A stretch of 64,000 nucleotides of DNA from Patescibacteria group bacterium (GCA_028713575.1 JAQTOB010000004.1:5250-69249); one strand, 5' to 3'; positions 10,656 through 59,293 are shown, counted from the first letter of the stretch. Notes: generated from the sequence alone by a model not told the origin. Numbers and translations are program-made.

Positions 10656-11512
10656 AAAATCCTAAAGTTTCCGTTATTATTCCGGTTTATAATCGGGGAG
10701 AAAAATTAAAGGGATGTTTAAAATCTGTTTTAAATCAGACTTATAAAGATTATGAGGTTATTGTCGTTGATAATAATTCCACGGATAACACCAAGGAAAC
10801 AATAAAAGAATTTCAAAAAAAAGACAAAAGGGTGAGATATTTATTTGAACCGAAAAGGGGCGCGGCGGCCGCCAGATATTTAGGCGAAATAAATTCACAA
10901 GGAGAAATAATTTTAATGACTGATTCTGATTGCATTGTTAAGGAAAATTGGGTGGCGGAAATAATTGAACCCATTGTCAAACGCGGCGCCGTGGCGGTAC
11001 AGGGCGTTAAAAGGGCCGCGATTAAGAATTACTGGACTTTACATATGGAAGAGGACGAGAGAAGGAATACGGCGGGAAGAGTCAAAGATAAAAAAATGGG
11101 TTTGTTGGATACGGCAACCTTTGCGATTAAAAAATCCGTTTTGGAAAAAATCGGCCTTACCAACCCCCGGCTTTCAATCGGTCACGACACTGAACTGGAG
11201 GCCAGATTTAAAATTCAAGGGTATGAGATTTTTTTAAAACAAGTTGAAGTATTGCATTATTATGCGGATAATGCAATAAAATTATTTAAAAAAATGTTTA
11301 TTAGGGGCTATTGGAATGCGAGAATTACAAAAACATATGGAGCTTATAAAAAAATTTTTTTCATTCAAAGTAAAATGGAACATTTGCGTTATTTTATAAG
11401 AGTTGGTCTTGAATTATTATATTTACATAAAAATTTTAAGTATGATTTAGTCGCGGGCGTGGGTTGGAGGATAGGATTAGTTTGCGGTTATATATGGAAA
11501 AAAATAAAATAA
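10652..11512 (+). CDS. Glycosyltransferase family 2
   Basis: The N-terminal VSVIIPVYNRGEKLKGCLKSVLNQTYKDYEVIVVDNNSTD is a classic GT2 signature. Its 4-nt overlap with the upstream gene suggests translational coupling. Confidence 0.8.
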   Translation: MKNPKVSVIIPVYNRGEKLKGCLKSVLNQTYKDYEVIVVDNNSTDNTKETIKEFQKKDKRVRYLFEPKRGAAAARYLGEINSQGEIILMTDSDCIVKENWVAEIIEPIVKRGAVAVQGVKRAAIKNYWTLHMEEDERRNTAGRVKDKKMGLLDTATFAIKKSVLEKIGLTNPRLSIGHDTELEARFKIQGYEIFLKQVEVLHYYADNAIKLFKKMFIRGYWNARITKTYGAYKKIFFIQSKMEHLRYFIRVGLELLYLHKNFKYDLVAGVGWRIGLVCGYIWKKIK

Positions 11513-11678
11513 AAATAAATTTCTAAAAAGTGTATTAGAAAAAAAATATACGACAGGTATAAAATTTTTTGTCGTTTTATTCCTAAATAATTTTTCAATT
11601 TATAAAAAGACGCTCCAGCGAAGCGTTTTTTGGTTTATGAAATTTTGTAGGGAATAATATGTGAAAATAGATAAAGAT

Positions 11679-12407
11679 TTAATGTTGTTTTAGGTATTCT
11701 TCAACAACATCTTCAGGGTTCCCCTGTTTGATAATTTTTCCTTTATTAACCCAGATAACCCTGTCACAATATTTTTTAATTATTGGAAGCCTATGGCTTA
11801 CAAGTAAGGCGCTTGCTCCGTTTTTAATCAATTCTTTCACCTTATTGACGCTTTTATGTTTAAATTCTTCATCGCCCATTTCAAAAACTTCGTCTAAAAT
11901 TAAAATATCGGGATTGCAATGAACGGCAATTGAAAAAATGAGCCTTTGTTTCATTCCGTCTGAAAATTGATAAATTTTAGTATTAACAAAATCTTTCAAA
12001 TCAGAGAATTCAATAATGGAATTAATTTTTTCTTTGATTTCTTTTAGGGACAACCCTAAAAGCAGAGAATATAGATATATATTATCTCTTAATGTTAATC
12101 TTTCCTTTAGGCCGTTGTTTAAATTTATTAGAGAAATTATTTTTCCTTGAGTATTGATTCGGCCTTTTTCTTTATCATATATTCCGGCGATAATTCTAAG
12201 CAATGTGCTTTTACCTGAGCCGTTTTTGCCGATAATTCCGACAATTTCTCCGGCGTTAACATAAAAAGAAATATTGTCTAAAACCTGGATATTTTTTTTT
12301 GTTTCTTTTCCGGAAAAAAGCGAAATAAATCTGGCTAAAATTCCCCGGTTTTTTTCAAAACCGATTTTAAATTTTTTTGACAAATTTTCAACAATTATTC
12401 TTTTCAT
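11679..12407 (-). CDS. ABC transporter ATP-binding protein, polysaccharide/teichoic-acid export type (Wzt/TagH/KpsT-like)
   Basis: Walker A is GIIGKNGSGKSTLL, the signature is FSDGMKQRL and Walker B is ILILDEV. Confidence 0.85.
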   Translation of the reverse strand: MKRIIVENLSKKFKIGFEKNRGILARFISLFSGKETKKNIQVLDNISFYVNAGEIVGIIGKNGSGKSTLLRIIAGIYDKEKGRINTQGKIISLINLNNGLKERLTLRDNIYLYSLLLGLSLKEIKEKINSIIEFSDLKDFVNTKIYQFSDGMKQRLIFSIAVHCNPDILILDEVFEMGDEEFKHKSVNKVKELIKNGASALLVSHRLPIIKKYCDRVIWVNKGKIIKQGNPEDVVEEYLKQH

Positions 12408-13228
12408 TAAATTAGTTCTGCGAATTTATACTTTAATTTATTAAAGACACATAAACCGACGATTAAAAACAGTAAACTGTAAAATATTGCCCCTAAAACC
12501 ATCCAGGTTTCAGGGGATTTTGCGTATATCATTAAATCTCGGGCCATAGTGATAAAATAGTAGATAGGATTTAATAAGTTTAGTTTAAATAACCAGCTTT
12601 GATTTTCAATTGTATAGAAAATGGGCGTTCCAAACCAAATTAAAAAAGAAATGAACAGCCATATATTGAATAGGTCAATAAAATAAACGGTTAGGGCCGC
12701 CAAGATAAGAGAGGCGCCGTAAATAAAAAGGCAAAATAAAAAAAGAATTAAAGGGTAAAAAATAATTCCTTGGGTTGAAACATTAAAAATAAAAAGAAGT
12801 ATAACAAAAAGAATTATTTCAAATATATGCGAAAATAAAGTTTTTAAGGTGAGTGAAGCGACCAGGCATTCGCGGGGGAAGTTTATGGATTTAATAAGCC
12901 AACGGTTTTCGTTTATTACTTGGGTGGATTCTATGGTGGTTTGGCGAAAAAAATTAAACATAATTATGCCTAAGAGCAGGTAAAGCGAATAATGTGGAAT
13001 ATTATTGCTGAATTTATTGGCAAAAACGACCAAAAGGACAAGAAATGTTAAGGTCGGATTGAGCAGATACCAAAAAATTCCTAAATAACTTCCTTCGTTT
13101 CTTAATTTAAATTCAGCCTTAGCTAAGGCAAGACTTTTGTTTAGGGTGTTTTTTAACGTAAAGAAAAATTTTTGGGCCTTGTTCGTCACAAATATAGCGT
13201 TAACAAATTTATTTTTTAAATATGCCAA
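12407..13228 (-). CDS. ABC-2 family permease (Wzm/TagG-like)
   Basis: Six TM helices. It overlaps the ATPase gene by 1 nt, which is the typical Wzm-Wzt arrangement. Confidence 0.7.
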   Translation of the reverse strand: MAYLKNKFVNAIFVTNKAQKFFFTLKNTLNKSLALAKAEFKLRNEGSYLGIFWYLLNPTLTFLVLLVVFANKFSNNIPHYSLYLLLGIIMFNFFRQTTIESTQVINENRWLIKSINFPRECLVASLTLKTLFSHIFEIILFVILLFIFNVSTQGIIFYPLILFLFCLFIYGASLILAALTVYFIDLFNIWLFISFLIWFGTPIFYTIENQSWLFKLNLLNPIYYFITMARDLMIYAKSPETWMVLGAIFYSLLFLIVGLCVFNKLKYKFAELI

Positions 13229-13341
13229 AATAAAAGGACTTTGTCAATTTATTTGTCCAGCTTCCCCTTTACGATTTATTTTGTTATTATATAATATATT
13301 AGTGATAATCAATAATTAATAATCATTAATCAGCCAATTTT

Positions 13342-13920
13342 ATGACGCAAAAAAATACTACTCGGATAATCATTGCCGTGATTATCTTGGTTGTTCTCGG
13401 TTTAATTTTATTAACCGCGCCAAAAACTACGCCAAAACCGGAAACAAATTTAGGAGAAGAGCTGGAAACAGATAAAGAAGCAACTTCAATTGAATTGGAA
13501 AGTTTGGTTCCGGGAGCCAGTCCGGTTTCGGAAAAAGGCGAAGTTTTGACAACCGAAGGCAAAGCGACCGACAACGCGGCCATTCCCGGTTCGCCGGACG
13601 CGCCTAAGCAATCTGCTTCTTTAAAAGAGGAAGAAATTCCAGAAGAAGCAGTTAAAATTTCCGTTTCTACCAACGGCTTTACTCCTAATGAATTTAAAGT
13701 TAAAGCCAAAAGCGCGATTACTCTTTCTCTTACTTCCACAGATATGACCCATGTTTTCAAATTTGATGACCCGGTTCTGCAGGCCATTGCCATCGGTGTG
13801 GGAGGTAAGGAAACCCGAGCTATTACTTTCAATGCGCCTTCAGCTGGCGACTACACTTTTTATTGCGATGTGCCTGGTCATCGTGGTCGTGGCGAAACAG
13901 GCGTGATGCATGTTGAATAA
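13342..13920 (+). CDS. Membrane-anchored cupredoxin-like protein (paralog of 6788-7447)
   Basis: N-terminal TM helix. The C-terminal domain has a His in THVFKF followed by FYCDVPGHRGRGETGVMHVE. It aligns with 6788-7447 over the whole C-terminal domain. Confidence 0.5.
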   Translation: MTQKNTTRIIIAVIILVVLGLILLTAPKTTPKPETNLGEELETDKEATSIELESLVPGASPVSEKGEVLTTEGKATDNAAIPGSPDAPKQSASLKEEEIPEEAVKISVSTNGFTPNEFKVKAKSAITLSLTSTDMTHVFKFDDPVLQAIAIGVGGKETRAITFNAPSAGDYTFYCDVPGHRGRGETGVMHVE

Positions 13921-13933
13921 GTATTATTGTTTT

Positions 13934-13988
13934 GAGAACAAAAATATCCCGGATTAACCGGGATATTTTTGTTCTCAGTAATTTTTTA
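13934..13988 (+). terminator. Intrinsic terminator. A perfect 19-bp stem (gagaacaaaaatatcccgg / ccgggatatttttgttctc) with an attaa loop is followed by a T-run. It lies between convergent genes.
   Basis: Inverted repeat read directly, with tttttt at 13983-13988. Confidence 0.7.
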
Positions 13989-15455
13989 CGGACCAATCAA
14001 ATTATTGGCGATTATCTTATAATCTTGATCATAAATAAATATGCTTAAGGCGATACTTTGACATTGCTTTGGTAAAAGAAGACTATCTTCAGTCGTTTTA
14101 TCAAGACAGATTAACGGCTTTTCATTCACCAAAATATCCCGAGAAACAATAACAATTATTTTTTGATTTTTATATTCTTTTTTATCCCGCAGTGATAATT
14201 GATTGTTTTCTTTAGATACCGAAAGTAGATGATTTCTTAATTGATGATAATGAAAATCAAATGATTGTTGAAAGCCGGAAACGATTTTTTGATTATCAGT
14301 AATAAACGCGCTTTCATCATTATTATAATTGGCTAAAAGGCTCCAATTATTAGTGCCAAAAAGCGCAGTTTTCCCGTCTATAATCAGAACATGATGATGA
14401 AGAAAAGAATTAAAAATTTCTTCGCCAATAGAACCTGGTATTTCATCATTAAAATCAAAAGTTCGCCAAACGTCGTCTAAGATTTCAAGATTGTCTATTT
14501 TTTTTCTCCATTTTTCATAAAGAAGCAAGTTAAAAGCGGAATCAGGTTTCCAAAGATTAAAGTCGTCAGTGATGATTTTAATATTTATTCCTTGTTCTGC
14601 TTTTTGCAAAATAGCTTTAGCGATTTTTCTATCCGTGAGTTGCCAAATCATTATTTCTATGTCTTTTTCCGCTTCCTTGATTAAATCAATGATTTTTTCA
14701 TTAAGAGAATTAGTTTTGAATCCCGGACTCCACCAAAGGTCAAAAAAACAATCGTTAAAATTTATTCTTTTTGCCCAGGGCCGATAGCCGTTTTCCCCCA
14801 GTTTTTTGATGCCGCTTAATCCGTTTTTCAATCTAATAAATTCATGATAATAAGTTTTAATAATTTCTTCTTCATTGGTGGTAAAAAGAAAACTGGGGTC
14901 AAATTGTTCCTGCCAGTCTGTCCAATTAAGGGACTCAACAATTAAATTTTGATTATTTGTCCCCTCATCAATAATTAGAAATTTATGATGCATATAGCCG
15001 AGATCGGTATTAGCGTCTATTCTTTTAATACCCGAGGGCAAGTCGTAAAAAACAAGATTATGTTGTTCTTCTTTTTCTTTGTCAAAAATCATGGTTATCT
15101 TTACGCCCCTTTGTTTTGCCCGATAAAGCTCTTCTTTAAAACCTTCTAAATTAAAGGAATACATGGCCAGATCAATGGTTTTTTTTGCATTTTTAATTTT
15201 TTTTATAATAATTTCAGAAAACAAATTGGTCTTGAATTCATTATTGAAATATATTTCGCCTCTAAAGTCGTTTTTTGATTCAACTTCCTGATGAGAAATG
15301 TATTTTGGCAATTTGAAATTAAATAAATTCCAAGCGGTTATTTTTTTAGAAACAAGAACAAGAAAAAAACAAAGAAAGAAAAAAATAATCAAACCAAGGG
15401 TAATAATTTTAAATTTTTTCAACCCCTTTTTGGAATAGAAAATATTTTTTATCAT
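13986..15455 (-). CDS. Membrane-anchored phospholipase D-family protein with two HKD-type motifs (PLD nuclease / cardiolipin-synthase-like fold)
   Basis: N-terminal TM helix. Motif 1 is MHHKFLIIDEGTNNQNLIVESLNW (HxKxxxxD...N). Motif 2 is LHHHVLIIDGKTALFGTNNWS, a variant HxH(x4)D...GTNN. Confidence 0.6.
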   Translation of the reverse strand: MIKNIFYSKKGLKKFKIITLGLIIFFFLCFFLVLVSKKITAWNLFNFKLPKYISHQEVESKNDFRGEIYFNNEFKTNLFSEIIIKKIKNAKKTIDLAMYSFNLEGFKEELYRAKQRGVKITMIFDKEKEEQHNLVFYDLPSGIKRIDANTDLGYMHHKFLIIDEGTNNQNLIVESLNWTDWQEQFDPSFLFTTNEEEIIKTYYHEFIRLKNGLSGIKKLGENGYRPWAKRINFNDCFFDLWWSPGFKTNSLNEKIIDLIKEAEKDIEIMIWQLTDRKIAKAILQKAEQGINIKIITDDFNLWKPDSAFNLLLYEKWRKKIDNLEILDDVWRTFDFNDEIPGSIGEEIFNSFLHHHVLIIDGKTALFGTNNWSLLANYNNDESAFITDNQKIVSGFQQSFDFHYHQLRNHLLSVSKENNQLSLRDKKEYKNQKIIVIVSRDILVNEKPLICLDKTTEDSLLLPKQCQSIALSIFIYDQDYKIIANNLIGP

Positions 15456-17145
15456 ATTTTAATAAAGAATTATCTTGACCGGAAAGAACGATAAAAATTG
15501 ATTCTTTCAGCTGATTGGTTAAAATTTTGAAGACTTTGTTCGTTATTTCGTTATTTAGGTCAGCATAAATAGCGTCCACGATTATTAACAAAGGCTTTTT
15601 TATCAGGCAATAAGCGGCCTGCAAAGAAAAAAGTTCCGTTAAATTCATTTTCATTGATTGAAAATCATGACCCATGAATTTGCTTAATGACATAATAAAA
15701 TTAAATTCTTTAAAGGGAGAAAGTGTTTGAAATGTTTTTTCAACATCTAGGGGCGTAATGTCTTCTTTATTTTTTCCTGTTAAAATTTCACCGATTTTTT
15801 TTTCCGTTGACAAATCGTTTTTGATAAAATAAGCGGGAAAAGAGGCTTGCTGCCAATGTTTGTAAAAAAATCTTTTACCATTGATTTTTACTATCCAGCT
15901 GGAAATATTGAATTGACCTTGACCGGAAAAAATAAGACCTAACTGATTTTTATTTGGATTTTTCCCAAAAATGAGAATTTTTTCACTTTTTTTGAATTCA
16001 AATTTTAGATGATGCGAATATCCGTCTGATTTTATTAATTTTGTTTTTTTTGCATTAAAGGAAATGGTTTGGAAATTTTTGAAATTGATAAATCGGCGCT
16101 TATTGGTTTTAGATTTAGGAACAGAGAGGATTAGCCCCAGCTTGGTAGGCAATGAATAAAATCCGATTTGTAAACTGGTGTAGAGTAAGCGAGTGAGATA
16201 AAAGATAATGATGCCAGAAAGAAATAGATTGCCAATTTCTATTTGCAGAAAAAAAGAAGGAAAATATATTTGCAAAATATAAAATATTCCGGCCAAAAGA
16301 ATTAAAAGAGCGAAAATTACCCGTGGTCCGAAATTGAGCCAAAGATTTCGGCGGATGCGAAAATAAGTGTCAATTTTTACTAAATCATCAAGTTTTTTCA
16401 AGCTTTTTTCTTCCAAGCGATGGCTTTGAATAAAGGGCAATTCATAAAGGTCGGTTACAATATTTTTGATTATTTCCGAATACAAAGTGGTTTCCTTGGT
16501 AATGTAGTTTTTTGCAATGAAATAGCCAATAACTCCAATGGCGATGTTTATAGGAATGAAGGCAAGAACAATGATTAAAAGTTTTGTGTTATAGAAAAAA
16601 GTGATGGAGATTAGTCCTAAAATATAAAGAATCCAACGCATTGAACCAATAAGGCTTTTTTCAACCCCCATTTGTAGCAAAGGAAGATGATATGATATTT
16701 TGGCAATTAAAGAGGCCTTGTTTTGACTTTTTGTTTTGAAAAAGGGACGATGCAGGAAGATTTTAAACCAACCCCTTCTCAAATCGTTTAATAAATAAAC
16801 AATTAGGGTTTTTTCTATTTTTAAACCAATAAAAGAACAAACAAGATAAATCATTACTCCGGCGGAGAGAATAAAAAAAACGATTGGCATTTTTTTGCGG
16901 ATTAAAAGAGCGCTGAATTGGGAAATAAAACTGTGGCTAAACAAAGACAAAATAACTTCTAAAATAACCAGAAAGAAAATAAGCAAAATCATGATTTTTA
17001 CTTCTTTTTTGTGTTTTTTTATAAAACGCAAAAGGTATTGGAAATGAAAATTTTCCAATTTCAGTTGATGGATGTTTTTTTTAATTTTTTCCCTTTGTTG
17101 ATACAAAGAGATCTGATAGTTTTTTTCTTCCATGATGGACCTCAA
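15409..17145 (-). CDS. ABC-exporter-like membrane protein (N-terminal 6-TM domain plus C-terminal NBD-like domain) with all catalytic motifs degenerate (pseudo-ATPase)
   Basis: The TMD carries an ABC_membrane-like LLNDLRRGWFKIFL region. In the NBD-like part the Walker A position reads ILIFGKNPNKNQL (no GxxGxGKS/T). The signature position reads FSLQAAY instead of LSGGQ. The Walker B position reads LLIIVDAIYADLN, so the catalytic E is replaced by A. Confidence 0.55.
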   Translation of the reverse strand: MRSIMEEKNYQISLYQQREKIKKNIHQLKLENFHFQYLLRFIKKHKKEVKIMILLIFFLVILEVILSLFSHSFISQFSALLIRKKMPIVFFILSAGVMIYLVCSFIGLKIEKTLIVYLLNDLRRGWFKIFLHRPFFKTKSQNKASLIAKISYHLPLLQMGVEKSLIGSMRWILYILGLISITFFYNTKLLIIVLAFIPINIAIGVIGYFIAKNYITKETTLYSEIIKNIVTDLYELPFIQSHRLEEKSLKKLDDLVKIDTYFRIRRNLWLNFGPRVIFALLILLAGIFYILQIYFPSFFLQIEIGNLFLSGIIIFYLTRLLYTSLQIGFYSLPTKLGLILSVPKSKTNKRRFINFKNFQTISFNAKKTKLIKSDGYSHHLKFEFKKSEKILIFGKNPNKNQLGLIFSGQGQFNISSWIVKINGKRFFYKHWQQASFPAYFIKNDLSTEKKIGEILTGKNKEDITPLDVEKTFQTLSPFKEFNFIMSLSKFMGHDFQSMKMNLTELFSLQAAYCLIKKPLLIIVDAIYADLNNEITNKVFKILTNQLKESIFIVLSGQDNSLLKYDKKYFLFQKGVEKI

Positions 17146-18319
17146 GATAATATTTATATAAAGAAGGGATTTTAATATTTTTCAAATCCTTTTTTAGTTT
17201 TTTTTGTAATCGGGGAGAATAAGAACCGTAAAAATATTTAGTAATGATGCGGAAAAAAGTTTCAGACAAATTTTTAATTTGTTGTTCGTCATTAACTAAG
17301 ATTTTTTGGCTGATAATTTGCAATAATTGGTTATTTAAAGAATTCTCTTTTTTATAAAGAAGTTGGGAAAAATGTTTCATTTTATTTTTTGGCTTAAAAG
17401 AAAGAAGTGACGTCCGCCAATAACTTATGGTTTTTTTAACAAATGAGTCCTCTAAACTAATTAAACGGTCATGGAAACAATAGCCTAAAAAATTAAATTT
17501 TTCTTTTCCATTTATCAATCTGGTTTTTTCTTTTTTAATTTCTAATTTTAATTCTTTAAGGTGTTGATATAAATATTTTTCAATTTCTTTAAGTTTTTTT
17601 AGACTTGGGTCAAAGGCGATTAAATCGTCGCCGATGCGACGATAAAGGCAAATTTTTGGCCCCAAGTATTTGTCTAGGTCGTCCAAATAAAGATTAGTAA
17701 AAAGGGCGATTAAAGGCACGCCTTGAATAACGCCGATTTTTGGCTGATAAATTTTTTTATCCTTATAAACCGCATTTTTAATGAAAAGTTTAAGGATTTC
17801 CATCAGCGGTTTTTCAGAAATAGTTTTTTCAAGTTTGGTTATTAAAATATCTTGGTCAATGTAATCGGAATAATTTTTAAGGTCGGCAATCAGAATAAAA
17901 TCTTTATCATAATAACGTTGATAGCGTCGCGCCACGCTACGACTGGCGTAAAAACTGCTATGAGAAGAACGATAAGAGAATAGATAAGGCGAATAAAGAT
18001 TTTCAAAAATTGGCTCTAAAACCCGATAAATAGCTTGAGCTTTAATTCGGGCTCTAACTGAATAAACATATATGTCTCTTAAAGAACCGTCTTTTTTTGG
18101 AATGTAATGGCAAATAGCTGGCGCCAAAGGAGTAATTTCAATTAATTCTTTCCTCGCTTTTTGGCAGAATTCTTCTGCCTGAGATTTAACGTCGTTTAGG
18201 CCAAGTCCTTCAATGCCGACGTATCTTGCCGTTAAGGATTTTTGGTCAAATTTTTTAGCCAAATCCAAATAGGCCTGCCGAATGTTTTTAATGTCAATTA
18301 TTTTTTCAAAAAGTTTCAT
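17081..18319 (-). CDS. Reverse transcriptase (group II intron / retron-like RT motifs 0-7 plus a roughly 130-aa C-terminal extension) with an unusual IGDD motif C
   Basis: Motif 0 is RYVGIEGLG and motif 1 is IPKKDGSLRDI. Motif 2 is SVRARIKAQAIYRVLEPIFE and motif 3 is FSYRSSHSSFYA. Motif 4 is ILIADLKNYSDYID and motif 5 is GVIQGVPLIALFTNLYLDDLD. Motif C is LYRRIGDDLIAF and motif 7 is LKLEIKKEKTRLIN...FNFLGYCF. The gene overlaps the downstream gene by 65 nt. Confidence 0.8.
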   Translation of the reverse strand: MKLFEKIIDIKNIRQAYLDLAKKFDQKSLTARYVGIEGLGLNDVKSQAEEFCQKARKELIEITPLAPAICHYIPKKDGSLRDIYVYSVRARIKAQAIYRVLEPIFENLYSPYLFSYRSSHSSFYASRSVARRYQRYYDKDFILIADLKNYSDYIDQDILITKLEKTISEKPLMEILKLFIKNAVYKDKKIYQPKIGVIQGVPLIALFTNLYLDDLDKYLGPKICLYRRIGDDLIAFDPSLKKLKEIEKYLYQHLKELKLEIKKEKTRLINGKEKFNFLGYCFHDRLISLEDSFVKKTISYWRTSLLSFKPKNKMKHFSQLLYKKENSLNNQLLQIISQKILVNDEQQIKNLSETFFRIITKYFYGSYSPRLQKKLKKDLKNIKIPSLYKYYLEVHHGRKKLSDLFVSTKGKN

Positions 18320-18330
18320 TTTTATATCAA

Positions 18331-18369
18331 GCCCCGTATTTCAAAAACAAAATACGGGGCTGTTTTTTT
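18331..18369 (+). terminator. Strong hairpin (gccccgtattt / aaatacggggc, 11-bp stem) followed by tgttttttt on the + strand. It lies 12 nt upstream of the minus-strand RT start codon.
   Basis: Read directly from the sequence. It would terminate + strand (antisense-to-RT) transcripts. Alternatively it is part of a structured RT leader RNA. Confidence 0.55.
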
Positions 18370-18727
18370 ACCATAACATGGCAATGCCCAACGGCGAGCC
18401 ATTAATCAAGTCAAATTGAGATAACAGTGCTAAATAGGTTTTTTTTATTTTTTTTATTATTTCACTTGCTGTTTTGGTATTAGGCGGTTTTATAACAACA
18501 AGCCGGATAATTTTTAATACCCCTTATTTAAAGAGTGGTTATGGTTTTAATTTAATTGAAATTTTTATTTGAACAGCAATTATTGGAAATTTCCATTCAA
18601 CTACATTTTAACACGGATTTTAAAAAATTGATATGCTTGTCTTGTGGAAAAGTTTTTAAATTAATTGAAGTTTTTAATTGTTATTTTCCCCTTTTTATAC
18701 TATAATAAAAGTATTATTATTGGTTTT

Positions 18728-21700
18728 ATGTCTTTGTTTTCAAAATTTAATTTTAAAAATTTTTTGATTGTTACGGGGTCTTTTTTTCTGCTGTTTATCC
18801 TTATTTTAACCGGCATTTTTTTATTTAACCGAAAAATGAATATTCAGGCGGCGGAAACACACAAGCTCCGCGGTTGGGGTTGGTCGGAAAACGTCGGTTG
18901 GATTTCTATGAATTGTTTTAATGATTTTGATAATGATGGCGTTTTTGAAAATTGTTGTCCCGGCGGTACAGAATGTACTAGTGAAAATACCCCTTATACC
19001 CAATGTTGCCCTTATGATTTGAGCGCTGATTATGGGGTCAATTATGATACGATTTCAAAGGAATTAAGCGGTTATGCTTGGGCGGAAAATATCGGTTGGA
19101 TTTGTTTTGGCAAAACCTGCGATGGCGCGACGCCTGACGGCAATAACGCTTGGGCCTGCGTCGGCAACGGGTCTTGTCTCAATGGTGTTTGTTCCTGTGT
19201 CGGCGACCAAGGGGAAGATTTTCTGGATACCGACAAGGCGTGTACCGAATCCAATCATTTAAAAGCTCACTGGAAAATGAATGATATAGTTAATGGGAAA
19301 ATTATTGACGAGACTACGGTTAATGGAGGAACCTTAATGCCCGCGGTTGCTCCGCCCGCTTTAACCAAAGGAAAGTTTGAAAATGCTTTGAAATTTGATG
19401 GGATAGAGGATTATGTTGAAATGGCGGACAGTCCCAATCTCAGTATGACCGGCAATTTAACCATTGAGGCATGGGTAAAAAGAAATGAAGTCGGCGGAGA
19501 ACAAACTATTGTTGCTAAATGGGATGAATCTCAAAACAAAAAAAGCTATCGGCTTTGGTTTAGCAGTGACAACCGATTAAATTTTACTGTTTCTAATAAT
19601 ACTAATCTCGCCACGGCGCAGCAAAAAAACGGCATTTGCGTGGGCAGTAATAGAAAGCAGTGTTATAACGGTCTGGAAACAAATGAACAAAGTTGTTCTT
19701 TTCATGCTGATTGTCCAATTGGTTATTATTGTCACGAAAAACTTTGCGACAATGATAGCAATTGTGACCAGGATTTACACGAAATCTGCCAGAACGCGCC
19801 CATTACTGACATTAAAAAATGGCATCATGTCGTGGGCAAGTATGTGGCTGATATTCCCGGCACTGATGTTGATGAAAAAGCCCTGTTGCTTTTTATTGAT
19901 GGTTCGCCGGCTTTCGTTAACATTACTGGAACTATTCCCAATGCTTTAATTGATGACAGCCAGAATTTTTATATTGGCGCAAAAAAGGGAACCACTGTCA
20001 TGAATACTTATTTTAAGGGCAATATTGACAATGTGTCTGTTTGGTCTTGTCAAAATTTGGGCAAAATTTTGGGTCGCCACAAAAAAGAGATTTGGAATGA
20101 CGCCAAAATGGAAGTGGACGGTTGGGCAAAAATAGTTTCTTTGAATGACGGCGGGTGGTTAAAATTACAAGGACTTACTCGCGATAGCCGAGTTTGGGGC
20201 AGTTATTTAAACAATTATAATACTTTTTACACTTTTAGCGGTTATATGGCTAATCGTTATGTTAAAGAACCTACAAATAGCTCCGGTTTAATGGCTTATT
20301 GGAAAATGAATGAACCATTTTGGAATGATAGCATTAATGAGGTGATTGATTCTTCAATTAATAATAATCATGGCACCGCAAAAAATGGGGCCAAAATTAT
20401 CAATAACGGCGCTTTACATAATGCCGGAGATTTTGACGGCGAAAATGATTGTTTGTTGATACCGGATTCTCCCACTTTGGACATTGCCAATAGCATCACT
20501 TTAAGCATCTGGATTTTAAATGAAGGCCCGGGAAGCGGAAATGAAAGTTCGTCAAAGGGAATGATTATATCTAAAAATTATGCCGGCAATAATGGCGTTT
20601 ATAATTTGCATTTAAATTACTATACCTCCGGCAATAAAATAGAATTTGAAGTCTATGATTTAAACGATACCCGGCATTATTTGGAATCAACCACGGTGGT
20701 TGAGGATAAAAAATGGTATCACGTTGTCGCTATCTACGATTATGGTTCGGGCAAAGCGAAAATTTATATTAATGGAGAAAAAGAAGAAAACGAAGGGACA
20801 TGGGGCGGTTATAACTTAAAAACAACATCATTAGCCACCAGTATCGGCTGTTCAACTTCCGCGGACAACACTCCTTTAAAGATGTTTTTTAGCGGTTTGA
20901 TTGACGATGTGATGATTTATAATAGAGTATTGAGCGAAACCGAAATTAAAGCGATTTATAATTCATCTATTCCTTTTTGTGCCGGCTGGGAAGACCACGA
21001 ACATGAATATAGCGGTCCGCCCGCGCCTTTGGATTTTGATAATTTAAGCCTGGACAATACTTTGCTTTGTGGGCAAATGTCATTGCAATGGGAGTCCTCT
21101 GATTGGGCGGAAAGCTATACTTATGAGCGTTGCGACAATGTTTCAGAGACAGAATGTGCCAGTTGTTCTTATGTGGAAAAGAGCGTTTTGGACGATTCTT
21201 GCGAATTAACGGGTTGTTATTTGGTTGATAATGATTTAATTCCAAACACTGGTTATTGTTACAAGGTTCAGGCACACAATGAAACCGGTTCTACTTATAA
21301 CTCCGAGGGGCCGGTTTGGAAAAGCACTTTGTTTTGCGCCCCGACTTTTGGTGTGATTGACAATTCGGTTTGCGGACAACTTTCTCTTCAATGGGAATCA
21401 ATTGAAGAGGCCGACGGCAATAATATTTATCGTTCTTTAACAAACAATGGTTGTTATGATGTTTACAGCCCCACTTGCGAATTAATTGGTCACGTGGCAG
21501 AGGGTATGAATTATTATGTTAATAACGATGAGCTTAAAGATTTAATCGCTCATTGGAAAATGAATGAATCGTCTTGGAGTGGCGCGACTGATGAAGTCAA
21601 TGATTCTTCTGGTAATGGAAATCACGGGGTTGCCAGCACCGGAACCACGACTACTGGCAATGGAAAATTTGATTATGCCGGCGTTTTTGACGGCAACGAT

Positions 21701-22450
21701 TATTTAACTATCGGACACCATGAACAATTTGATTTGGGCGAAGATGATAAAATGACTATTGAAGCTTGGGTTTATTTAAATGCCGCGCCGACTAATTATC
21801 AGATGATTTTAAGCAAGGGCTATAATCCGGGCTATGAATTTAGAATCAATACTGGTCGTTATGCGCAATTTTTAAATGTGGCAACCGGCTATAGTTCTTA
21901 TGTTCTTACTTCCACTAATGCTTTGTCTTTAAATGAATGGTATCATTTGGCCGTGACTAAAAGTAATATGACTGGTGAAACAAAAATTTATATCAATGGC
22001 GTTTTGGATAAAACCGGATTTTTAGATACTTTTGATTATAGTAATGAAAATGAAATAAGAATCGGCCGTGATGCTGATGACGGATGCGCCAACGGCAATG
22101 CCTATTTTAAGGGTTATTTGGACAATTTGGCCGTTTATAACGCGATTAAAGACGAAGAACAAATGAGAATTGATTACGAAGCAGGCAATTGCGGTGCTGA
22201 TAATTGCCGAATAAGTGAAGTTTGCAATCTTTGTCATGTTCAGGGCGTTGACGACGGAATTTGCGGCAGAATATCAAGCGATGCCAGTGTTTGTTGTTGT
22301 TCCTTTACTGATTCGCGCATTGTTCCTTTTGTTGATTATCACTATGTTTTTACTGTCACCAGCGGACAAGGCGAATCAACACCCGGTCCGGAACCGCCCT
22401 TAACCAGTCAAACGATTTGTTTTCCGCCAACAGAAGAAGAAGAAAATTAA
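18728..22450 (+). CDS. Large membrane-anchored surface protein with multiple LamG-like (concanavalin A-like lectin/glucanase) domains and FN3-like segments
   Basis: An N-terminal TM helix follows MSLFSKF. The block AHWKMNE...NGNHG...A..DG.DDY... ...EAWV... recurs three times and is LamG_3-like. The ORF track starts at 18665, but the later ATG at 18728 immediately precedes the TM helix. Confidence 0.6.
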   Translation: MSLFSKFNFKNFLIVTGSFFLLFILILTGIFLFNRKMNIQAAETHKLRGWGWSENVGWISMNCFNDFDNDGVFENCCPGGTECTSENTPYTQCCPYDLSADYGVNYDTISKELSGYAWAENIGWICFGKTCDGATPDGNNAWACVGNGSCLNGVCSCVGDQGEDFLDTDKACTESNHLKAHWKMNDIVNGKIIDETTVNGGTLMPAVAPPALTKGKFENALKFDGIEDYVEMADSPNLSMTGNLTIEAWVKRNEVGGEQTIVAKWDESQNKKSYRLWFSSDNRLNFTVSNNTNLATAQQKNGICVGSNRKQCYNGLETNEQSCSFHADCPIGYYCHEKLCDNDSNCDQDLHEICQNAPITDIKKWHHVVGKYVADIPGTDVDEKALLLFIDGSPAFVNITGTIPNALIDDSQNFYIGAKKGTTVMNTYFKGNIDNVSVWSCQNLGKILGRHKKEIWNDAKMEVDGWAKIVSLNDGGWLKLQGLTRDSRVWGSYLNNYNTFYTFSGYMANRYVKEPTNSSGLMAYWKMNEPFWNDSINEVIDSSINNNHGTAKNGAKIINNGALHNAGDFDGENDCLLIPDSPTLDIANSITLSIWILNEGPGSGNESSSKGMIISKNYAGNNGVYNLHLNYYTSGNKIEFEVYDLNDTRHYLESTTVVEDKKWYHVVAIYDYGSGKAKIYINGEKEENEGTWGGYNLKTTSLATSIGCSTSADNTPLKMFFSGLIDDVMIYNRVLSETEIKAIYNSSIPFCAGWEDHEHEYSGPPAPLDFDNLSLDNTLLCGQMSLQWESSDWAESYTYERCDNVSETECASCSYVEKSVLDDSCELTGCYLVDNDLIPNTGYCYKVQAHNETGSTYNSEGPVWKSTLFCAPTFGVIDNSVCGQLSLQWESIEEADGNNIYRSLTNNGCYDVYSPTCELIGHVAEGMNYYVNNDELKDLIAHWKMNESSWSGATDEVNDSSGNGNHGVASTGTTTTGNGKFDYAGVFDGNDYLTIGHHEQFDLGEDDKMTIEAWVYLNAAPTNYQMILSKGYNPGYEFRINTGRYAQFLNVATGYSSYVLTSTNALSLNEWYHLAVTKSNMTGETKIYINGVLDKTGFLDTFDYSNENEIRIGRDADDGCANGNAYFKGYLDNLAVYNAIKDEEQMRIDYEAGNCGADNCRISEVCNLCHVQGVDDGICGRISSDASVCCCSFTDSRIVPFVDYHYVFTVTSGQGESTPGPEPPLTSQTICFPPTEEEEN

Positions 22451-22680
22451 TAGAAAAATAAAGGAATTGATGATGCTCCTGATGAGGTGGTTCCGATGAC
22501 ACTTAAAGATACTTAGGAGGATACTTGGGAGCAAGGCTCCGAAGTAAGTCTCATAAGTACGGAAAAAACAAGACCGGAGATAGAAGTCACACGCAATAGC
22601 CATGGATTAAATGGATTAAAAAAGTTTTATAAAGGGTTCTATATTCTATATTATATTATATTTTTCATTTTTCAGATTTT

Positions 22681-22710
22681 CTTTTTGGCAGGTGCTCACC
22701 TGCCAAAAAG
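22681..22710. repeat. REP-like palindrome ctttttggcaggtg-ct-cacctgccaaaaag immediately upstream of the Y1 transposase gene
   Basis: Perfect 14-bp inverted repeat. Half-site echoes (gacctgccaaaaaa, acccgccaaaaac) follow. Confidence 0.75.
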
Positions 22711-22752
22711 AAAATGACCTGCCAAAAAAGACCAAACCCGCCAAAAACCAAA

Positions 22753-23412
22753 ATGTCTCTTAAAAATTCACTTAAAATTTACATTAAAGATGGAATCTAT
22801 CACATCTATAACCGGGGCATAGAAAAAAGAAACATCTTTTTAGATGAACAGGATTATAAAGTATTTTTATATTATTTGAAAAGTTATTTAACACCAGTTG
22901 GTCAACAAGAAAAACCGCCCTATGGTATTGATAGAAATGTTTTAGATTTCACCCTTTATAAACAAATCCGGCTTTTTTGTTTTTGTTTAATGCCAAATCA
23001 TTTTCATTTAATGATTCAGCAATTAACTGAAAGGGCGATTATAGAATTTATGAAGCGTTTAACTAACGCCTATGTAAGATATTTTAATGAAAAGTATGAT
23101 CGCAAAAGTATAGGTCCGCTTTTCCAGGGCAAATATAAAGCTGTGTTAATAAAAAAAGAACAACAATTCTTATATTTGCCGTATTATATCCATTTTCACA
23201 ATCCGGAAGGATTATATAGAAACAAGAGAGATGCTGAGTTAATCAAAAAAATACAAAATTATCCTTGGTCAAGTTATGCCGATTATTTAGGTAAACGTGA
23301 CACCAAATGGATTTATAAAAAAGGAATAATGGAGCAATTTATGGAAACAGAAGAAATAAAGCCGGAGACGGAAACTACGCGCAAAATTTTAGGTTCAACG
23401 GTTATAGATTAA
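22753..23412 (+). CDS. Y1 HUH transposase (IS200/IS605 TnpA-like; REP-associated tyrosine transposase-like)
   Basis: YHIYNRG is present. The HUH motif is CLMPNHFHLM. The candidate catalytic Tyr lies in LFQGKYKAVLI. The gene is flanked on both sides by related palindromes. Confidence 0.65.
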   Translation: MSLKNSLKIYIKDGIYHIYNRGIEKRNIFLDEQDYKVFLYYLKSYLTPVGQQEKPPYGIDRNVLDFTLYKQIRLFCFCLMPNHFHLMIQQLTERAIIEFMKRLTNAYVRYFNEKYDRKSIGPLFQGKYKAVLIKKEQQFLYLPYYIHFHNPEGLYRNKRDAELIKKIQNYPWSSYADYLGKRDTKWIYKKGIMEQFMETEEIKPETETTRKILGSTVID

Positions 23413-23425
23413 AGGGAATGTGTAT

Positions 23426-23447
23426 TTGGAAGGTGAGCACCTTCCAA
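23426..23447. repeat. REP-like palindrome ttggaaggtg-ag-caccttccaa immediately downstream of the Y1 transposase
   Basis: Perfect 10-bp inverted repeat of the same ttggNaggtg family as 22681-22710. Confidence 0.75.
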
Positions 23448-23478
23448 GAAATATCTTCCAAGAAATAAGAAATAATTT

Positions 23479-25515
23479 ATGGGTCAACAAGAGGCAAAAC
23501 AAAGAATTGAAAAATTAAAAACGGAACTGAATCATCACCGTTATTTTTATCATGTTTTAGATAAACAGGAAATTTCTGACGCGGCCTGGGATTCTTTAAA
23601 ACACGAATTAGCCAGTTTAGAAGAGCAATACCCGGAATTTATCACTTCTGATTCTCCCACGCAAAGAGTCGGTGGCGAGCCCTTAGAAAAGTTCGTTAAA
23701 ATTAAACACCCCGAACCCATGTTGTCTATTGAAGATGTTTTTAATTTTAAGGAATTGCAAGAATGGGAAGATTATATGAAAGATTATCTTTTAAAAGAAA
23801 TGGGGGTTTTCCCAAAATTCACTTATTTTTGCGAACGAAAAATTGACGGCGTGGACATTGTTTTAATTTATAAAAAAGGAGTTTTATTTAACGCCGCCAC
23901 GCGAGGTAATGGCTTAATTGGCGAAGATGTCACTCAAAACATTAAAACAATAGAAGCTATTCCTTTGCGTTTAGAAAAAGAAATTGATTTGGTGGTCAGA
24001 GGAGAAATTTTTTTACAAAAAAAAGATTTTCAGAAACTTAATCGTGAACGAGAAAAAAGAGGCCTACCGACCTATGCCAATCCTCGTAATATTGCCGCTG
24101 GTTCAATTCGTCAATTAGACCCAAAAATCACGGCTCAACGTTTTCTTGATTGCTATATTTTTGAAATTATCACGGATTTGGGACAGAAAACCCATCAGCA
24201 AGTTCATGAAATTTTAAAACAACTGGGCTTTAAGACAGATTCTCAAACTAAACTTTGTTTTGATTTAAAACAAGTCCAGAAATATTATTTATTTTTAAAT
24301 CAGAAACGGCTAGAAAATTCTTTTGATTATGACGGCATGGTGGTAATGTTAAATGATATTGTTTTACAAAAAAAATTGTCTTTTATTGGCAAATCGCCGC
24401 GTTGGATGCGCGCTTATAAATTTCCTGGAGAACAGACAACAACGATTATAGAAGATATTTTTATTCAGGTTGGCCGAACTGGCGTTTTGACCCCGGTGGC
24501 AAAATTAAAGCCGGTTTCATTGATGGGAACTACGGTTTCTCGCGCTACTTTACATAATCAGGACGAGATAGAGCGATTGGACGCGCGTCTTGGTGACAGC
24601 GTAATTATTGAGAAGGCCGGCGATATTATTCCGGCTGTGGTTAAAGTTTTGAAAAATTTAAGAACCGGGAAAGAAAAAAAATTTCAGATGCCGACAAAAT
24701 GTCCGATTTGCAACGGCCCGATAAGAAAAAAAGAAGGCGAAGTCGCTTATTATTGTCAGAATAAAAATTGTTTTGCCAGCCAGCAAAGAAAAATTAGTTA
24801 TTTTGTTTCTAAAAGATGTTTTGACATTGAAGGTTTGGGCCCAAAAATTATAGGCAAACTTTTAGAAGCGGGATTAATATCAGATGCAGCCGATTTGTTT
24901 AAATTGCAAAAAGGAGATATTATTTTATTAGAAAGTCCGTCTGATATCAAACCGAAAGTTTTAGTGCGGGGGTTCGCGGAAAAATCGGCGGATAATTTAA
25001 TCAAGGCCATTGATAAAAGTAAAGAGATAGAATTGTCGCGCTTTATTCAGGCCCTGGGTATTCGTCACATTGGCGAACAAATGGCTAATGATTTGGCCGA
25101 GTATTTTAAAAGTTTTGAAAAATTTTCTCAAACCAAAAAAGAAGAATTGCTGACCTTATCGGATATTGGTCCGATTGCCAGTCAAAGCATTGTTATGTGG
25201 CTTAAAAACAAAGAAAATCAAAAATTTTTGGGAAAATTAAAAAAATATGGCGTGATTATAAAGAATCATTATTTATTAAAAGCAAAACAAATTTTAAAAG
25301 GAAAATCTTTTGTTTTAACCGGCGTTTTAACATCAATGTCGCGGGAAAAAGCCAAAGAAAAAATTCAAAGTCTTGGCGGCAGGGTTTTAAACGCGGTCAG
25401 CACAAAAACCGATTTTCTTGTTAGTGGAAAAAATCCTGGAAGTAAATATAATACAGCGAAGAGCCTAAGAATTAACATAATCAACGAGCAGGAATTTTTA
25501 AAGATGGTTAGATAG
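23479..25515 (+). CDS. ligA: NAD-dependent DNA ligase
   Basis: The adenylation site is KIDGVDIV (KxDG). The Zn finger is CPICNGPIRKKEGEVAYYCQNKNC. HhH and C-terminal BRCT regions are present. Confidence 0.95.
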   Translation: MGQQEAKQRIEKLKTELNHHRYFYHVLDKQEISDAAWDSLKHELASLEEQYPEFITSDSPTQRVGGEPLEKFVKIKHPEPMLSIEDVFNFKELQEWEDYMKDYLLKEMGVFPKFTYFCERKIDGVDIVLIYKKGVLFNAATRGNGLIGEDVTQNIKTIEAIPLRLEKEIDLVVRGEIFLQKKDFQKLNREREKRGLPTYANPRNIAAGSIRQLDPKITAQRFLDCYIFEIITDLGQKTHQQVHEILKQLGFKTDSQTKLCFDLKQVQKYYLFLNQKRLENSFDYDGMVVMLNDIVLQKKLSFIGKSPRWMRAYKFPGEQTTTIIEDIFIQVGRTGVLTPVAKLKPVSLMGTTVSRATLHNQDEIERLDARLGDSVIIEKAGDIIPAVVKVLKNLRTGKEKKFQMPTKCPICNGPIRKKEGEVAYYCQNKNCFASQQRKISYFVSKRCFDIEGLGPKIIGKLLEAGLISDAADLFKLQKGDIILLESPSDIKPKVLVRGFAEKSADNLIKAIDKSKEIELSRFIQALGIRHIGEQMANDLAEYFKSFEKFSQTKKEELLTLSDIGPIASQSIVMWLKNKENQKFLGKLKKYGVIIKNHYLLKAKQILKGKSFVLTGVLTSMSREKAKEKIQSLGGRVLNAVSTKTDFLVSGKNPGSKYNTAKSLRINIINEQEFLKMVR

Positions 25516-53867: not shown

Positions 53868-54845
53868 ATGAAATTTAAAAATTTGACCCGACAATATAAT
53901 TCAATAAAATTGGATACTGTTTCTGAAGATAAAATTCGGGAACGGGTTTTTGATTATTTTCAACAAACTCGTCCTGCTACGCCAACAATGAGTTATCATT
54001 TTAGTTTGTTTCTTAAACCGGCTTTAATAAGTTTGCTGGTTTTGTTTTTTATTTTTACAACTGGTTTTGGAACAATAGCCGTGGCGAAAAAATCCTTGCC
54101 CGGTGATTTTTTATATTCTCTTAAAAGAGTTGTGGAAAAAAGTCAAATGTTTTTGGCTTTTAGTTCTTCGCAAAAAGTCGTTTTACGCGCGGAAATTTTA
54201 AATAATCGTTTTGATGAAGCCAAGGTTTTGGTTAAGAAAATGGAAACAGGAGACAAGGAGTCAGAATCAGATTTTAATATCTTGGCCGCGAATTTTAATC
54301 AGGAATTAAAAATTTTAAAAGAAGAAATTGGAGAACAAATTTTAGTAGAGGATGGGCCTTTTCCGGCTGAGGACTTATTAAACACCGAATTATTGGACCA
54401 GGGTTCATTGCCGATTCAAGACCAACGCCAGATGTTTACTGTTTTGCCCAATGAAGACATTGAAAGACTCTTGACTGAAACCAGAGAATTGCTGGCTGAA
54501 AAAAATATGGCTTTGGCCCTAGCTCGGATTGAGCAAGTAGAAAAAATAGTCAGCGGTGAAGAAAAAGTAGAACCCCAAGAGGCAGAATCTCAGGAAATAG
54601 AACTTCAAGAAATTCAGGAAAATGAAAAGAGGATTTTAGAATCAACAGAAGAAAATTTTCAATTTCCAGCTCTTCAACCGGCGGAACAATCTCCGAATTC
54701 CGAATTGCTTGAAACCCAATCCTTGAATTCCCAATTACCCAATTTAGGTTCAACAGGAAATCTTTCAAAAGAAAAACAAGATGATTTTAAAGTTAAAATA
54801 GAAAAGGATTCTTCAGCGCAAACCAGTATGATTCGGGAAGAGTAG
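53868..54845 (+). CDS. Membrane-anchored protein downstream of the ECF sigma, possibly an anti-sigma factor
   Basis: A roughly 60-aa cytoplasmic N-terminus and a single TM helix (LISLLVLFFIFTTGFGTIAVA) precede an acidic extracytoplasmic domain. The position next to the sigma gene is the main argument. Confidence 0.3.
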   Translation: MKFKNLTRQYNSIKLDTVSEDKIRERVFDYFQQTRPATPTMSYHFSLFLKPALISLLVLFFIFTTGFGTIAVAKKSLPGDFLYSLKRVVEKSQMFLAFSSSQKVVLRAEILNNRFDEAKVLVKKMETGDKESESDFNILAANFNQELKILKEEIGEQILVEDGPFPAEDLLNTELLDQGSLPIQDQRQMFTVLPNEDIERLLTETRELLAEKNMALALARIEQVEKIVSGEEKVEPQEAESQEIELQEIQENEKRILESTEENFQFPALQPAEQSPNSELLETQSLNSQLPNLGSTGNLSKEKQDDFKVKIEKDSSAQTSMIREE

Positions 54846-58928: not shown

Positions 58929-58930
58929 AT

Positions 58931-59293
58931 TCTTTGGAGACCAGGTCTCCAAAGATAGATATAACGTTTGACTGAAGCGCGTGTCCGCCTCTGGTGGACT
59001 AAAATCAGTCCATCTGGAATAATATAATAAAAATATTAGTTCCATCGCCAAAATCCCCTTAACAGGGGATTTTGGCTTTTAAAAGGGCGCAATACCTGCC
59101 TATCGGCAGGTTTTGGAGACCAGGTCTCCAAAAAAAGTCTCCAAAAAAATCTTGCGAGGTTTTTTAGTTTTAGAGACCAGTTTTTTGGAGACCTGGTCTC
59201 CAAAAAACCCTGCGAGGCCTTTTAGGGATTGTTTTTTTTAAATTAAAATATTATAATAATTGGAGACCTAATTTGGAGACCTGGTCTCCAAAT
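58931..59293. repeat. Cluster of at least 4 REP-like palindromes of the ttggagacc-N-ggtctccaa family (58931-58955, 59111-59133, 59181-59207, 59273-59293) plus half-site fragments, upstream of Y1 transposase paralog 2
   Basis: Perfect inverted repeats. Same family as 27667-27718. Confidence 0.85.

Follow-up and report, generated by a model that had tools for sequence, protein, structure and literature searches.

A Four-Part Patescibacterial Cassette of a Reverse Transcriptase Resembling Those of Group II Introns, an Adjacent Structured RNA, and Two Membrane Proteins

A 64,000-nucleotide stretch of DNA from a Patescibacteria group bacterium (GCA_028713575.1, JAQTOB010000004.1:5250-69249; hereafter the window) carries a minus-strand operon of three overlapping open reading frames (ORFs). 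These encode, in order, a reverse transcriptase (RT), a membrane protein resembling the ATP-binding cassette (ABC) exporters, and a phospholipase D (PLD) family protein anchored by a transmembrane (TM) helix and containing two HKD domains. A structured noncoding RNA (ncRNA) of about 180 nt is located directly 5' of the RT gene. The ncRNA, RT, ABC-like protein, and PLD protein constitute a four-part cassette that is inherited, and diverges, as one unit. The cassette is rare, patchy, and at times present in several copies, and it is nearly confined to the Patescibacteria, or Candidate Phyla Radiation (CPR), very small bacteria that live as symbionts. It is of the same kind as other systems that combine an RT with an ncRNA and accessory proteins, but its protein partners and its RNA are both new, and the cassette is apparently undescribed. 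An earlier note, made from the sequence of the window, had proposed an undescribed system of an RT, a hydrolysis-dead ABC-like protein, and a PLD protein behind a structured leader. That proposal survived the tests suggested with it, subject to the corrections given below. The coordinates of all features are collected in Table 1.

The three ORFs and their overlaps are present on the minus strand as first described. The stop codon of the RT gene lies within the next ORF, and the length of this overlap (53-65 nt) is set by the choice of start codon for the ABC-like protein: a TTG codon gives 578 residues, and the public annotation begins the protein at the ATG at 17133, which gives 574. The ABC-like and PLD genes overlap by 47 nt. 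Pfam matches were obtained for RVT_1 (4.8e-19) in the RT and for PLDc_2 twice (1e-35) in the PLD protein; the ABC_membrane match of 27 bits falls just below the cutoff of 28.

Full-length homologues of the RT, with identities of 36-74%, are common among the metagenome-assembled genomes of Patescibacteria. When their loci were fetched homologue by homologue, the RT gene was followed by a gene for a protein of about 570 residues and then by a gene for a PLDc_2 protein, mostly overlapping and in unrelated neighborhoods. An RT profile was searched against GTDB, using one genome per species (185,579 species genomes), and 61 loci were returned. The order RT, ABC-like protein, PLD protein was found in 61/61 of these loci wherever the contig extends far enough. 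The linkage was also tested in reverse, with a profile of the ABC-like protein searched against metagenome contigs. The RT lies upstream in all 28 loci returned, and the PLD protein lies downstream in each one whose contig is long enough. The co-occurrence on which the earlier proposal depended holds from the RT and from the ABC-like protein, and about 90 related loci all share one gene order. The pairwise identities of the RT, ABC-like, and PLD proteins are correlated across 58 loci (r = 0.90-0.93). Five genomes contain two or three cassettes each, and the paralogues are just 36-64% identical to one another.

The ABC-like family is small. Among 1.84 billion representative proteins, the number of matches is 90 at E<=1e-30 and rises to 118 when the threshold is relaxed to E<=1e-10; a gap separates the family from ordinary ABC exporters, which reach only about 1e-10. 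The ABC-like protein does not belong to a general exporter family, and neither it nor the PLD protein was seen apart from the RT in the loci examined. A chance arrangement, in which a housekeeping cardiolipin synthase and an exporter happen to lie beside an RT, was rejected: the reciprocal linkage is 100%, the PLD protein matches cardiolipin synthase only weakly (30 bits, the cutoff being 290), and the ABC-like proteins form an isolated family. A phage-borne system was likewise rejected, the RT having been found in 1 of 2.9 million viral contigs. A fixed fourth gene was not found in the loci, and the recurring neighbors are clade-specific.

The region upstream of the RT gene, which had been suggested as a possible source of a cognate ncRNA, encodes a conserved and covarying RNA. 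This RNA contains five helices (P1-P5) and a pseudoknot, formed by P3, and folds independently. The first alignment contained the window sequence and those of six close relatives. In it, 96% of the cells are paired, and 14 pairs are changed on both sides, compared with 1-3 in slid controls. The tip of P5 reads GCC-GYTT-GGC in this alignment, and a tip of the CCGTTTGG type is kept throughout the family. Helix P1 covaries to GCATAGC/GCTATGC in locus L069. The P3 pseudoknot joins the P2/P4 junction to the P4 loop, and its GGTATTA/TAATACC pairing covaries to GGTGTTA/TAACACC. When the last 60 nt before the RT start are compared between loci, differing hairpin stems are found between conserved flanks.

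A covariance model (R1) was built from the nested helices. Full-length matches to R1 are always on the strand of the RT and just upstream of it, down to an RT identity of 40%. Among 53 distinct matches, 93.8% of the cells are paired (36-46% in slid controls) and 34/34 pairs are compensatory, a count that leans toward the structure because the alignment was fitted to R1. The P3 pseudoknot lies outside the model, and for this reason its covariation is the cleanest evidence for the structure of the ncRNA: 99.2% of its cells are paired, compared with 23-49% in slid controls, and 6/6 pairs are compensatory. With these six, the pairs of the ncRNA number 40, each with compensatory changes. The minimum free energy fold of the window sequence alone yields the same helices (z = -2.9). 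A sequence-only nhmmer profile detects the ncRNA in 75 of the 95 loci whose upstream DNA is long enough, upstream of the RT and at no other place. The ncRNA has no match in Rfam 15.

Eight distinct loci (including L001, L009, L017, L025, L033, L043, and L066) have the ncRNA in two or three tandem copies upstream of the RT. The three copies at L001:7148-7943 are each preceded by a perfect TATAAT box and differ chiefly in the variable region, which separates P4 from the conserved block predicted to be single-stranded. The variable region changes in both length and sequence among loci as well as among these tandem copies. No pairing partner was identified for the conserved block, TCTCAATTTGACTTGATTA. 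A candidate second copy in the window at 53954-54141 on the minus strand (R1 22 bits, E = 0.19) is antisense within the ORF at 53868-54845 and was judged a chance match.

The hairpin abutting the RT start, to which attention had been drawn earlier, is real, but the informative RNA is the 181-nt ncRNA just upstream of it. This hairpin is scored as terminator-like on the plus strand by a consensus scan. At the same position, five relatives (L001, L006, L007, L012, and L020) carry a hairpin with a U-run after it on the RT strand. Most other loci lack a hairpin there, and P1 of the ncRNA ends 6-25 nt before the ATG of the RT. Since the hairpin is an extra element of the window's clade and is accompanied by a U-run in several relatives, it is a clade-specific, terminator-like addition, with the conserved ncRNA upstream of it. 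A function as a plus-strand terminator was rejected, because no plus-strand gene precedes it and the hairpin and U-run of the relatives are on the RT strand.

The RT is a full-length group II intron-like enzyme that has lost its intron. In a profile search of the PDB, the matches were to the GsI-IIC RT (1.6e-36), Cas6-RT-Cas1 (3e-34), DRT9 (9e-20), DRT2 (9e-14), G2L4 (8e-11), and retron RTs (1e-6); DRT denotes the defense-associated RTs. The AlphaFold model of the RT (pLDDT 92) was compared with the PDB using Foldseek, and 410 of 412 residues were aligned with the GsI-IIC RT (6ar3) at a TM-score of 0.75, with DRT9 as the next-best match. The C-terminal extension of about 130 residues, previously regarded as unexplained, corresponds structurally to the thumb/X and D-like domains of the intron RT, as follows from the full-length alignment with GsI-IIC. 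The catalytic residues D146 and D231-D232 are invariant in the family, and the steric gate is a Tyr. Family-wide, motif C reads RR[IV]GDD (positions 17622-17636, residues 228-232 in the window), compared with YADD in intron RTs. Some homologues have a precomputed match to RdRP_1 (PF00680).

A check for the RNA domains of a group II intron on either side of the RT had been put forward with the original proposal, and none were found. No Rfam 15 group II intron family matched, either across the whole window at the gathering thresholds or in positions 13000-20000 at E<=10. The locus was therefore rejected as a group II intron: the thumb/X domain is present, but the ribozyme domains are absent even at E<=10. 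A retron was rejected on the weak matches to retron RTs (1e-6 in the PDB; 3e-8 or weaker in PADLOC) and on the RNA, which is pseudoknotted and has no Rfam retron match. A diversity-generating retroelement (DGR) was rejected because there is no pair of template and variable repeats (TR/VR), the direct repeats in 11000-24000 being only the internal repeats of a gene for a LamG protein.

The fold of the ABC-like protein is that of a type IV exporter, with a six-helix TM domain and a nucleotide-binding domain (NBD). A Foldseek search with its predicted structure (pLDDT 78.5) returned full-length alignments with MsbA, ABCB1, TM287/288, BmrCD, and PCAT1 at 12-16% identity and E values of about 1e-13 to 1e-14. 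In the window, the Walker A segment reads FGKNPNKNQ and the Walker B segment IIVDA, with no Glu; the LSGGQ signature and the H-loop His are also missing. The substitutions reported earlier for the Walker A Lys, the Walker B Glu, LSGGQ, and the H-loop thus all hold for this copy, but the first of them does not extend to the family. Among 59 members, the Walker A motif GxxxxGK[ST] is kept in about 90%; it is lost in the window at 15955-15984 (residues 388-397), in a reading frame that is otherwise intact. Family-wide, the Walker B Asp is retained, Asn takes the place of the catalytic Glu in most members (Ala in the window), and an LSGGQ-like signature and an H-loop His are found in 0 of 59. Because the family is missing the H-loop His and the signature as well as the catalytic Glu, canonical ATP hydrolysis is excluded for it on the evidence of these motifs. 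By the same motifs, nucleotide binding would be possible for most members and not for the copy in the window.

The PLD protein contains an N-terminal TM helix and two HKD motifs, HHKFLIID...SLNWT and HHHVLIID...GTNNWS. Nuc-type nucleases of the PLD superfamily use the motif HxK(x)4D(x)6GSxN, with two copies to an active site; here the first motif is intact. The second has HxH in 60/60 homologues, with the remainder of the motif conserved. The TM anchor and the HxK and HxH motifs had been recognized from the outset; the halves, however, are of the Nuc/NucT/Zucchini type and not of the cardiolipin synthase type that had been considered. Both are closest to NucT, Zucchini (MitoPLD), and Nuc among PDB relatives, and to DrmC in PADLOC. 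NucT and Nuc are secreted or periplasmic nucleases, and Zucchini is likewise anchored via an N-terminal TM helix. The mean charge flanking the TM helix is +4.9 on the N-terminal side and +1.0 on the C-terminal side, and the N-terminal side is the more positive in 56/60 homologues. By the positive-inside rule, an N-in, C-out topology is inferred, with the catalytic domains predicted to be outside the cytoplasm. DISARM was considered and rejected, as only the PLD protein matches a component (DrmC), and DrmA, DrmB, and the methylase are not among the neighbors examined.

Table 1. Features of the cassette and its flanking hairpins in the window
Feature	Position	Strand	Description
ncRNA core	18367-18547	-	Conserved structured core, 181 nt, closed by P1; covariance model R1, 175 bits (partly circular, the window sequence being in the R1 seed)
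P1, 5' strand	18538-18544	-	CCATAAC; pairs with 18371-18377; 7/7 pairs compensatory (53-sequence alignment)
P1, 3' strand	18371-18377	-	GTTATGG; partner of CCATAAC
P2 hairpin	18521-18535	-	CTCTT/AAGGG; comparative alignment
P3 pseudoknot, 5' strand	18515-18520	-	GTATTA; pairs with TAATAC at 18477-18482
P3 pseudoknot, 3' strand	18477-18482	-	TAATAC; sits in the P4 loop
P4 long stem	18456-18511	-	P4a ATTAT/ATAAT and P4b GCTTGTT/AGCAAGT with an internal loop; comparative alignment
Variable region of the ncRNA	18422-18455	-	A-rich in the window; hairpins or long inserts in relatives
Conserved block	18403-18421	-	TCTCAATTTGACTTGATTA; predicted single-stranded; conserved in the window clade, partly family-wide
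P5 hairpin	18378-18402	-	Tip GCC-GTTG-GGC; 10 pairs, all compensatory (53-sequence alignment)
Hairpin between ncRNA and RT ATG	18330-18361	-	12-14 bp stem; ends 10 nt before the ATG
RT	17081-18319	-	412 residues; TIGR04416 146 bits, GsI-IIC RT 1.6e-36, AF2 pLDDT 92
ABC exporter-like membrane protein	15409-17145	-	574-578 residues; degenerate NBD; MsbA, ABCB1, TM287/288 fold
PLD protein	13986-15455	-	489 residues; N-terminal membrane anchor; two HKD domains; PLDc_2 twice
Hairpin between convergent PLD and cupredoxin genes	13933-13977		Perfect 20-bp hairpin; consensus scan

The claim that the combination of an RT, a dead ABC protein, and a PLD protein matches no described family was examined using PADLOC 2.0 and the literature, and no counterpart was found. 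No system in PADLOC 2.0 fits the cassette, and neither the gene combination nor the ABC-like protein is described there. In a non-exhaustive search of the literature, no RT with ABC-like and PLD partners and no G2L system from the CPR were found. The RT resembles the GsI-IIC type of group II intron RT that lacks an endonuclease domain (PDB 6AR1/6AR3) in its N-terminal extension, fingers/palm, thumb/X, and D-like C-terminus. It differs in having no surrounding ribozyme, in carrying [IV]GDD and not YADD in motif C, and in being tied to two genes for membrane proteins and a non-intron ncRNA. As in the definition of the G2L RTs, its nearest relatives are intron RTs and the intron RNA is absent (PMC8632793). 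Among the G2L clades described, none is accompanied by ABC or PLD proteins, and DGRs were thought to make up about 80% of the RTs of the CPR (PMC8632793). G2L4 itself is distant from the RT of the cassette (8e-11 by profile; 5e-14 by Foldseek) and, unlike it, acts alone in DNA repair, without an ncRNA or membrane partners.

With DRT9, DRT2, DRT10, and the retrons, the cassette shares a structured ncRNA directly 5' of the RT and accessory or effector proteins in the operon, but the RT lineage, the RNA family, and the partners differ. The ABC-like protein is similar to MsbA and TM287/288 in its six TM helices and NBD over about 570-590 aligned columns. In contrast to those exporters, to which it is 12-16% identical, it lacks the catalytic Glu, LSGGQ, and the H-loop His, and in the window also Walker A. 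Both halves of the PLD protein match small HKD nucleases such as Nuc, NucT, Zucchini (MitoPLD), and DrmC of DISARM. The cassette protein differs from these in that it fuses two HKD domains, the second being HxH, is predicted to face outward, and has no DISARM partners.

The likeliest role for the cassette, proposed tentatively and by analogy, would be an anti-phage response of the abortive-infection type in which an RT-ncRNA module is coupled to a membrane effector. The RT would bind the ncRNA to form a ribonucleoprotein and, as in retrons and DRT2/DRT9/DRT10, would probably use part of the ncRNA as the template and/or primer for cDNA synthesis. This ribonucleoprotein may dock on the cytoplasmic pseudo-NBD of an ABC-like dimer, which would serve as a scaffold or gate and not as a pump, either holding the PLD protein or passing a conformational change to it. 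The membrane-anchored PLD phosphodiesterase would be the effector, and it would be switched on when infection alters cDNA synthesis.

Several observations weigh against an antiphage role of this kind. A PLD domain predicted to face outward is a poor match for a nuclease whose target is phage DNA within the cell. The ncRNA is so near the ATG of the RT in most loci that it could be only a translational leader. The copy of the ABC-like protein in the window lacks Walker A, which means that nucleotide binding can be dispensed with or that this copy is in decay. A defense-island signature, one of the checks set out in the earlier note, was not found in the neighborhoods of the cassette, and the defense role is therefore drawn by analogy only. 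A toxin-antitoxin-like pair of the AbiEii/DUF6922 type about 2 kb upstream of one cassette (L070:2971-3850) is the sole defense-type neighbor seen.

The predicted outward orientation of the PLD domain and the lack of defense neighbors keep alive a second, rather unlikely reading, in which the same architecture has a nondefense role at the envelope. Here the RT-ncRNA module, an outward Nuc-type nuclease, and an exporter-like channel would act in the nucleic acid traffic of an episymbiont; possible functions are the processing of scavenged extracellular DNA or RNA and the export or display of an RT product. The predicted extracytoplasmic position of the PLD domain is consistent with this role, as is the secreted or periplasmic nature of its closest relatives, NucT and Nuc. 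The neighbors of the cassette are often pilins, DprA/ComM, and surface proteins rather than defense genes. In one subclade, a TM protein and then a cupredoxin are encoded downstream in 9-14 loci, a synteny that suggests vertical inheritance. On the other hand, the cassette is rare and patchy (61 loci in 185,579 species genomes; about 90 ABC-like proteins in 1.84 billion), and some genomes have several divergent copies of it, in contrast to what a core uptake function would show. In addition, the ABC-like protein cannot hydrolyze ATP by the canonical route, and we know of no ABC exporter that transports nucleic acid.

A more speculative, and improbable, form of the cassette would be an RT system that spans the membrane, with the RT and ncRNA in the cytoplasm, an ATP-binding but nonhydrolyzing scaffold, and an extracellular Nuc-type phosphodiesterase. 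If true, this would represent inside-out signaling, or a nucleic acid product being exported or processed, at the cell surface of a CPR episymbiont. To our knowledge, no prokaryotic RT has such a cross-membrane function.

The upstream RNA might instead be merely a cis-regulatory 5' leader, bound by the RT to control its own translation and serving neither as a template nor as a stable ncRNA partner. Group II intron proteins control their own translation by binding DIVa, and the RT is group II intron-like. The position of P1, ending 6-25 nt before the ATG in most loci, agrees with such a leader, and the 3' strand of P1 is purine-rich and resembles a Shine-Dalgarno sequence (GGGGTGA, GAGGATA). 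This explanation is nevertheless doubtful. A multi-helix, pseudoknotted fold of 180-260 nt far exceeds the needs of a translational operator. Tandem copies are found hundreds of nucleotides from the ATG, each with a TATAAT box, and in the clade of the window a terminator-like hairpin intervenes between the RNA and the ATG.

There is a small chance that the RT is a member of class 2 of the UG/Abi RTs and that the cassette is a divergent, UG26-like subtype of a known DRT group. The PADLOC model RT_UG26 matches at 119 bits (4.8e-35) over most of its length, and several other UG models, including UG4, UG17, and Drt9/UG28, also match. The class 2 members UG2, UG28, and UG27 have structured ncRNAs beside the RT (PMC9226505). 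The best PADLOC match, however, is the generic RT model (139 bits), and the RT-Cas1 model is strong as well. The group II RT model TIGR04416 scores higher than UG26 (146 bits, 1e-42, against 119 bits), although these models are from different libraries and the comparison is approximate; GsI-IIC also precedes DRT9 and DRT2 in the PDB search. A UG/Abi profile clearly above the intron, retron, DGR, CRISPR-RT, and G2L profiles, by which class 2 is recognized (PMC9226505), was not found. For UG26, the partners reported are Vsr-like endonucleases; ABC and PLD proteins are not among them.

A mobile or decaying retroelement, whether a group II intron remnant or a DGR, with the membrane genes as passengers, is largely refuted and retains very little probability: the RT is very near the intron RTs and IS200-like Y1 transposase genes are close to some copies, but intron domains are undetected even at E<=10, there is no TR/VR repeat pair, genomes contain no near-identical copies (the paralogues are 36-64% identical), viral contigs contain a single match in 2.9 million, and the three proteins co-diverge.

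Prokaryotic RTs freed from retroelements, such as those of retrons, DRTs, RT-Cas1, and G2L4, have repeatedly provided unexpected biochemistry and useful tools. The cassette adds a domesticated RT of the group II intron type, a strongly covarying pseudoknotted RNA, and two membrane partners not seen with RTs in the sources searched. It occurs in the CPR, in which immunity and RNA biology are nearly uncharted. Each of the four parts is testable, with evident residues of the active site or the structure. An intron-like RT that is compact and has a defined RNA ligand may be of interest for biotechnology, and the predicted outward nuclease-like effector would allow a mechanism unlike that of any known RT system.

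The flanks of the cassette differ among loci. The recurrent neighbors are pseudopilins, giant LamG or other surface proteins, a small TM protein, a cupredoxin, extracytoplasmic function (ECF) sigma factors, and an ABC-F ATPase. In the window, the gene divergent from the ncRNA (18665-22450, plus strand) encodes a protein of 1261 residues with four LamG (Laminin_G_3) domains and contains internal DNA repeats (20287/21541 and 20003/22097). Giant surface proteins adjoin the cassette in 12 other loci. On the other side, a membrane-anchored cupredoxin-like protein is encoded at 13342-13920 on the plus strand, convergent to the PLD gene. The hairpin between these two genes is likely the terminator of the operon and is probably bidirectional. 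Nine other loci encode a homologue of the cupredoxin on the same strand as the cassette and about 700 nt downstream of it.

IS200-like Y1 transposase genes (PF01797) are found within a few kilobases of the cassette in the window (22714-23412, plus strand) and directly downstream of the PLD gene at L001:12430-13077 and 16148-16789 and at L070:10753-11508. Farther along the window, the stretches 48001-51000 and 56001-59000 have a higher G+C content (0.43-0.48) than the rest (about 0.30-0.38), and these stretches fall within the very large ORFs at 47252-51994 and 55179-58928.

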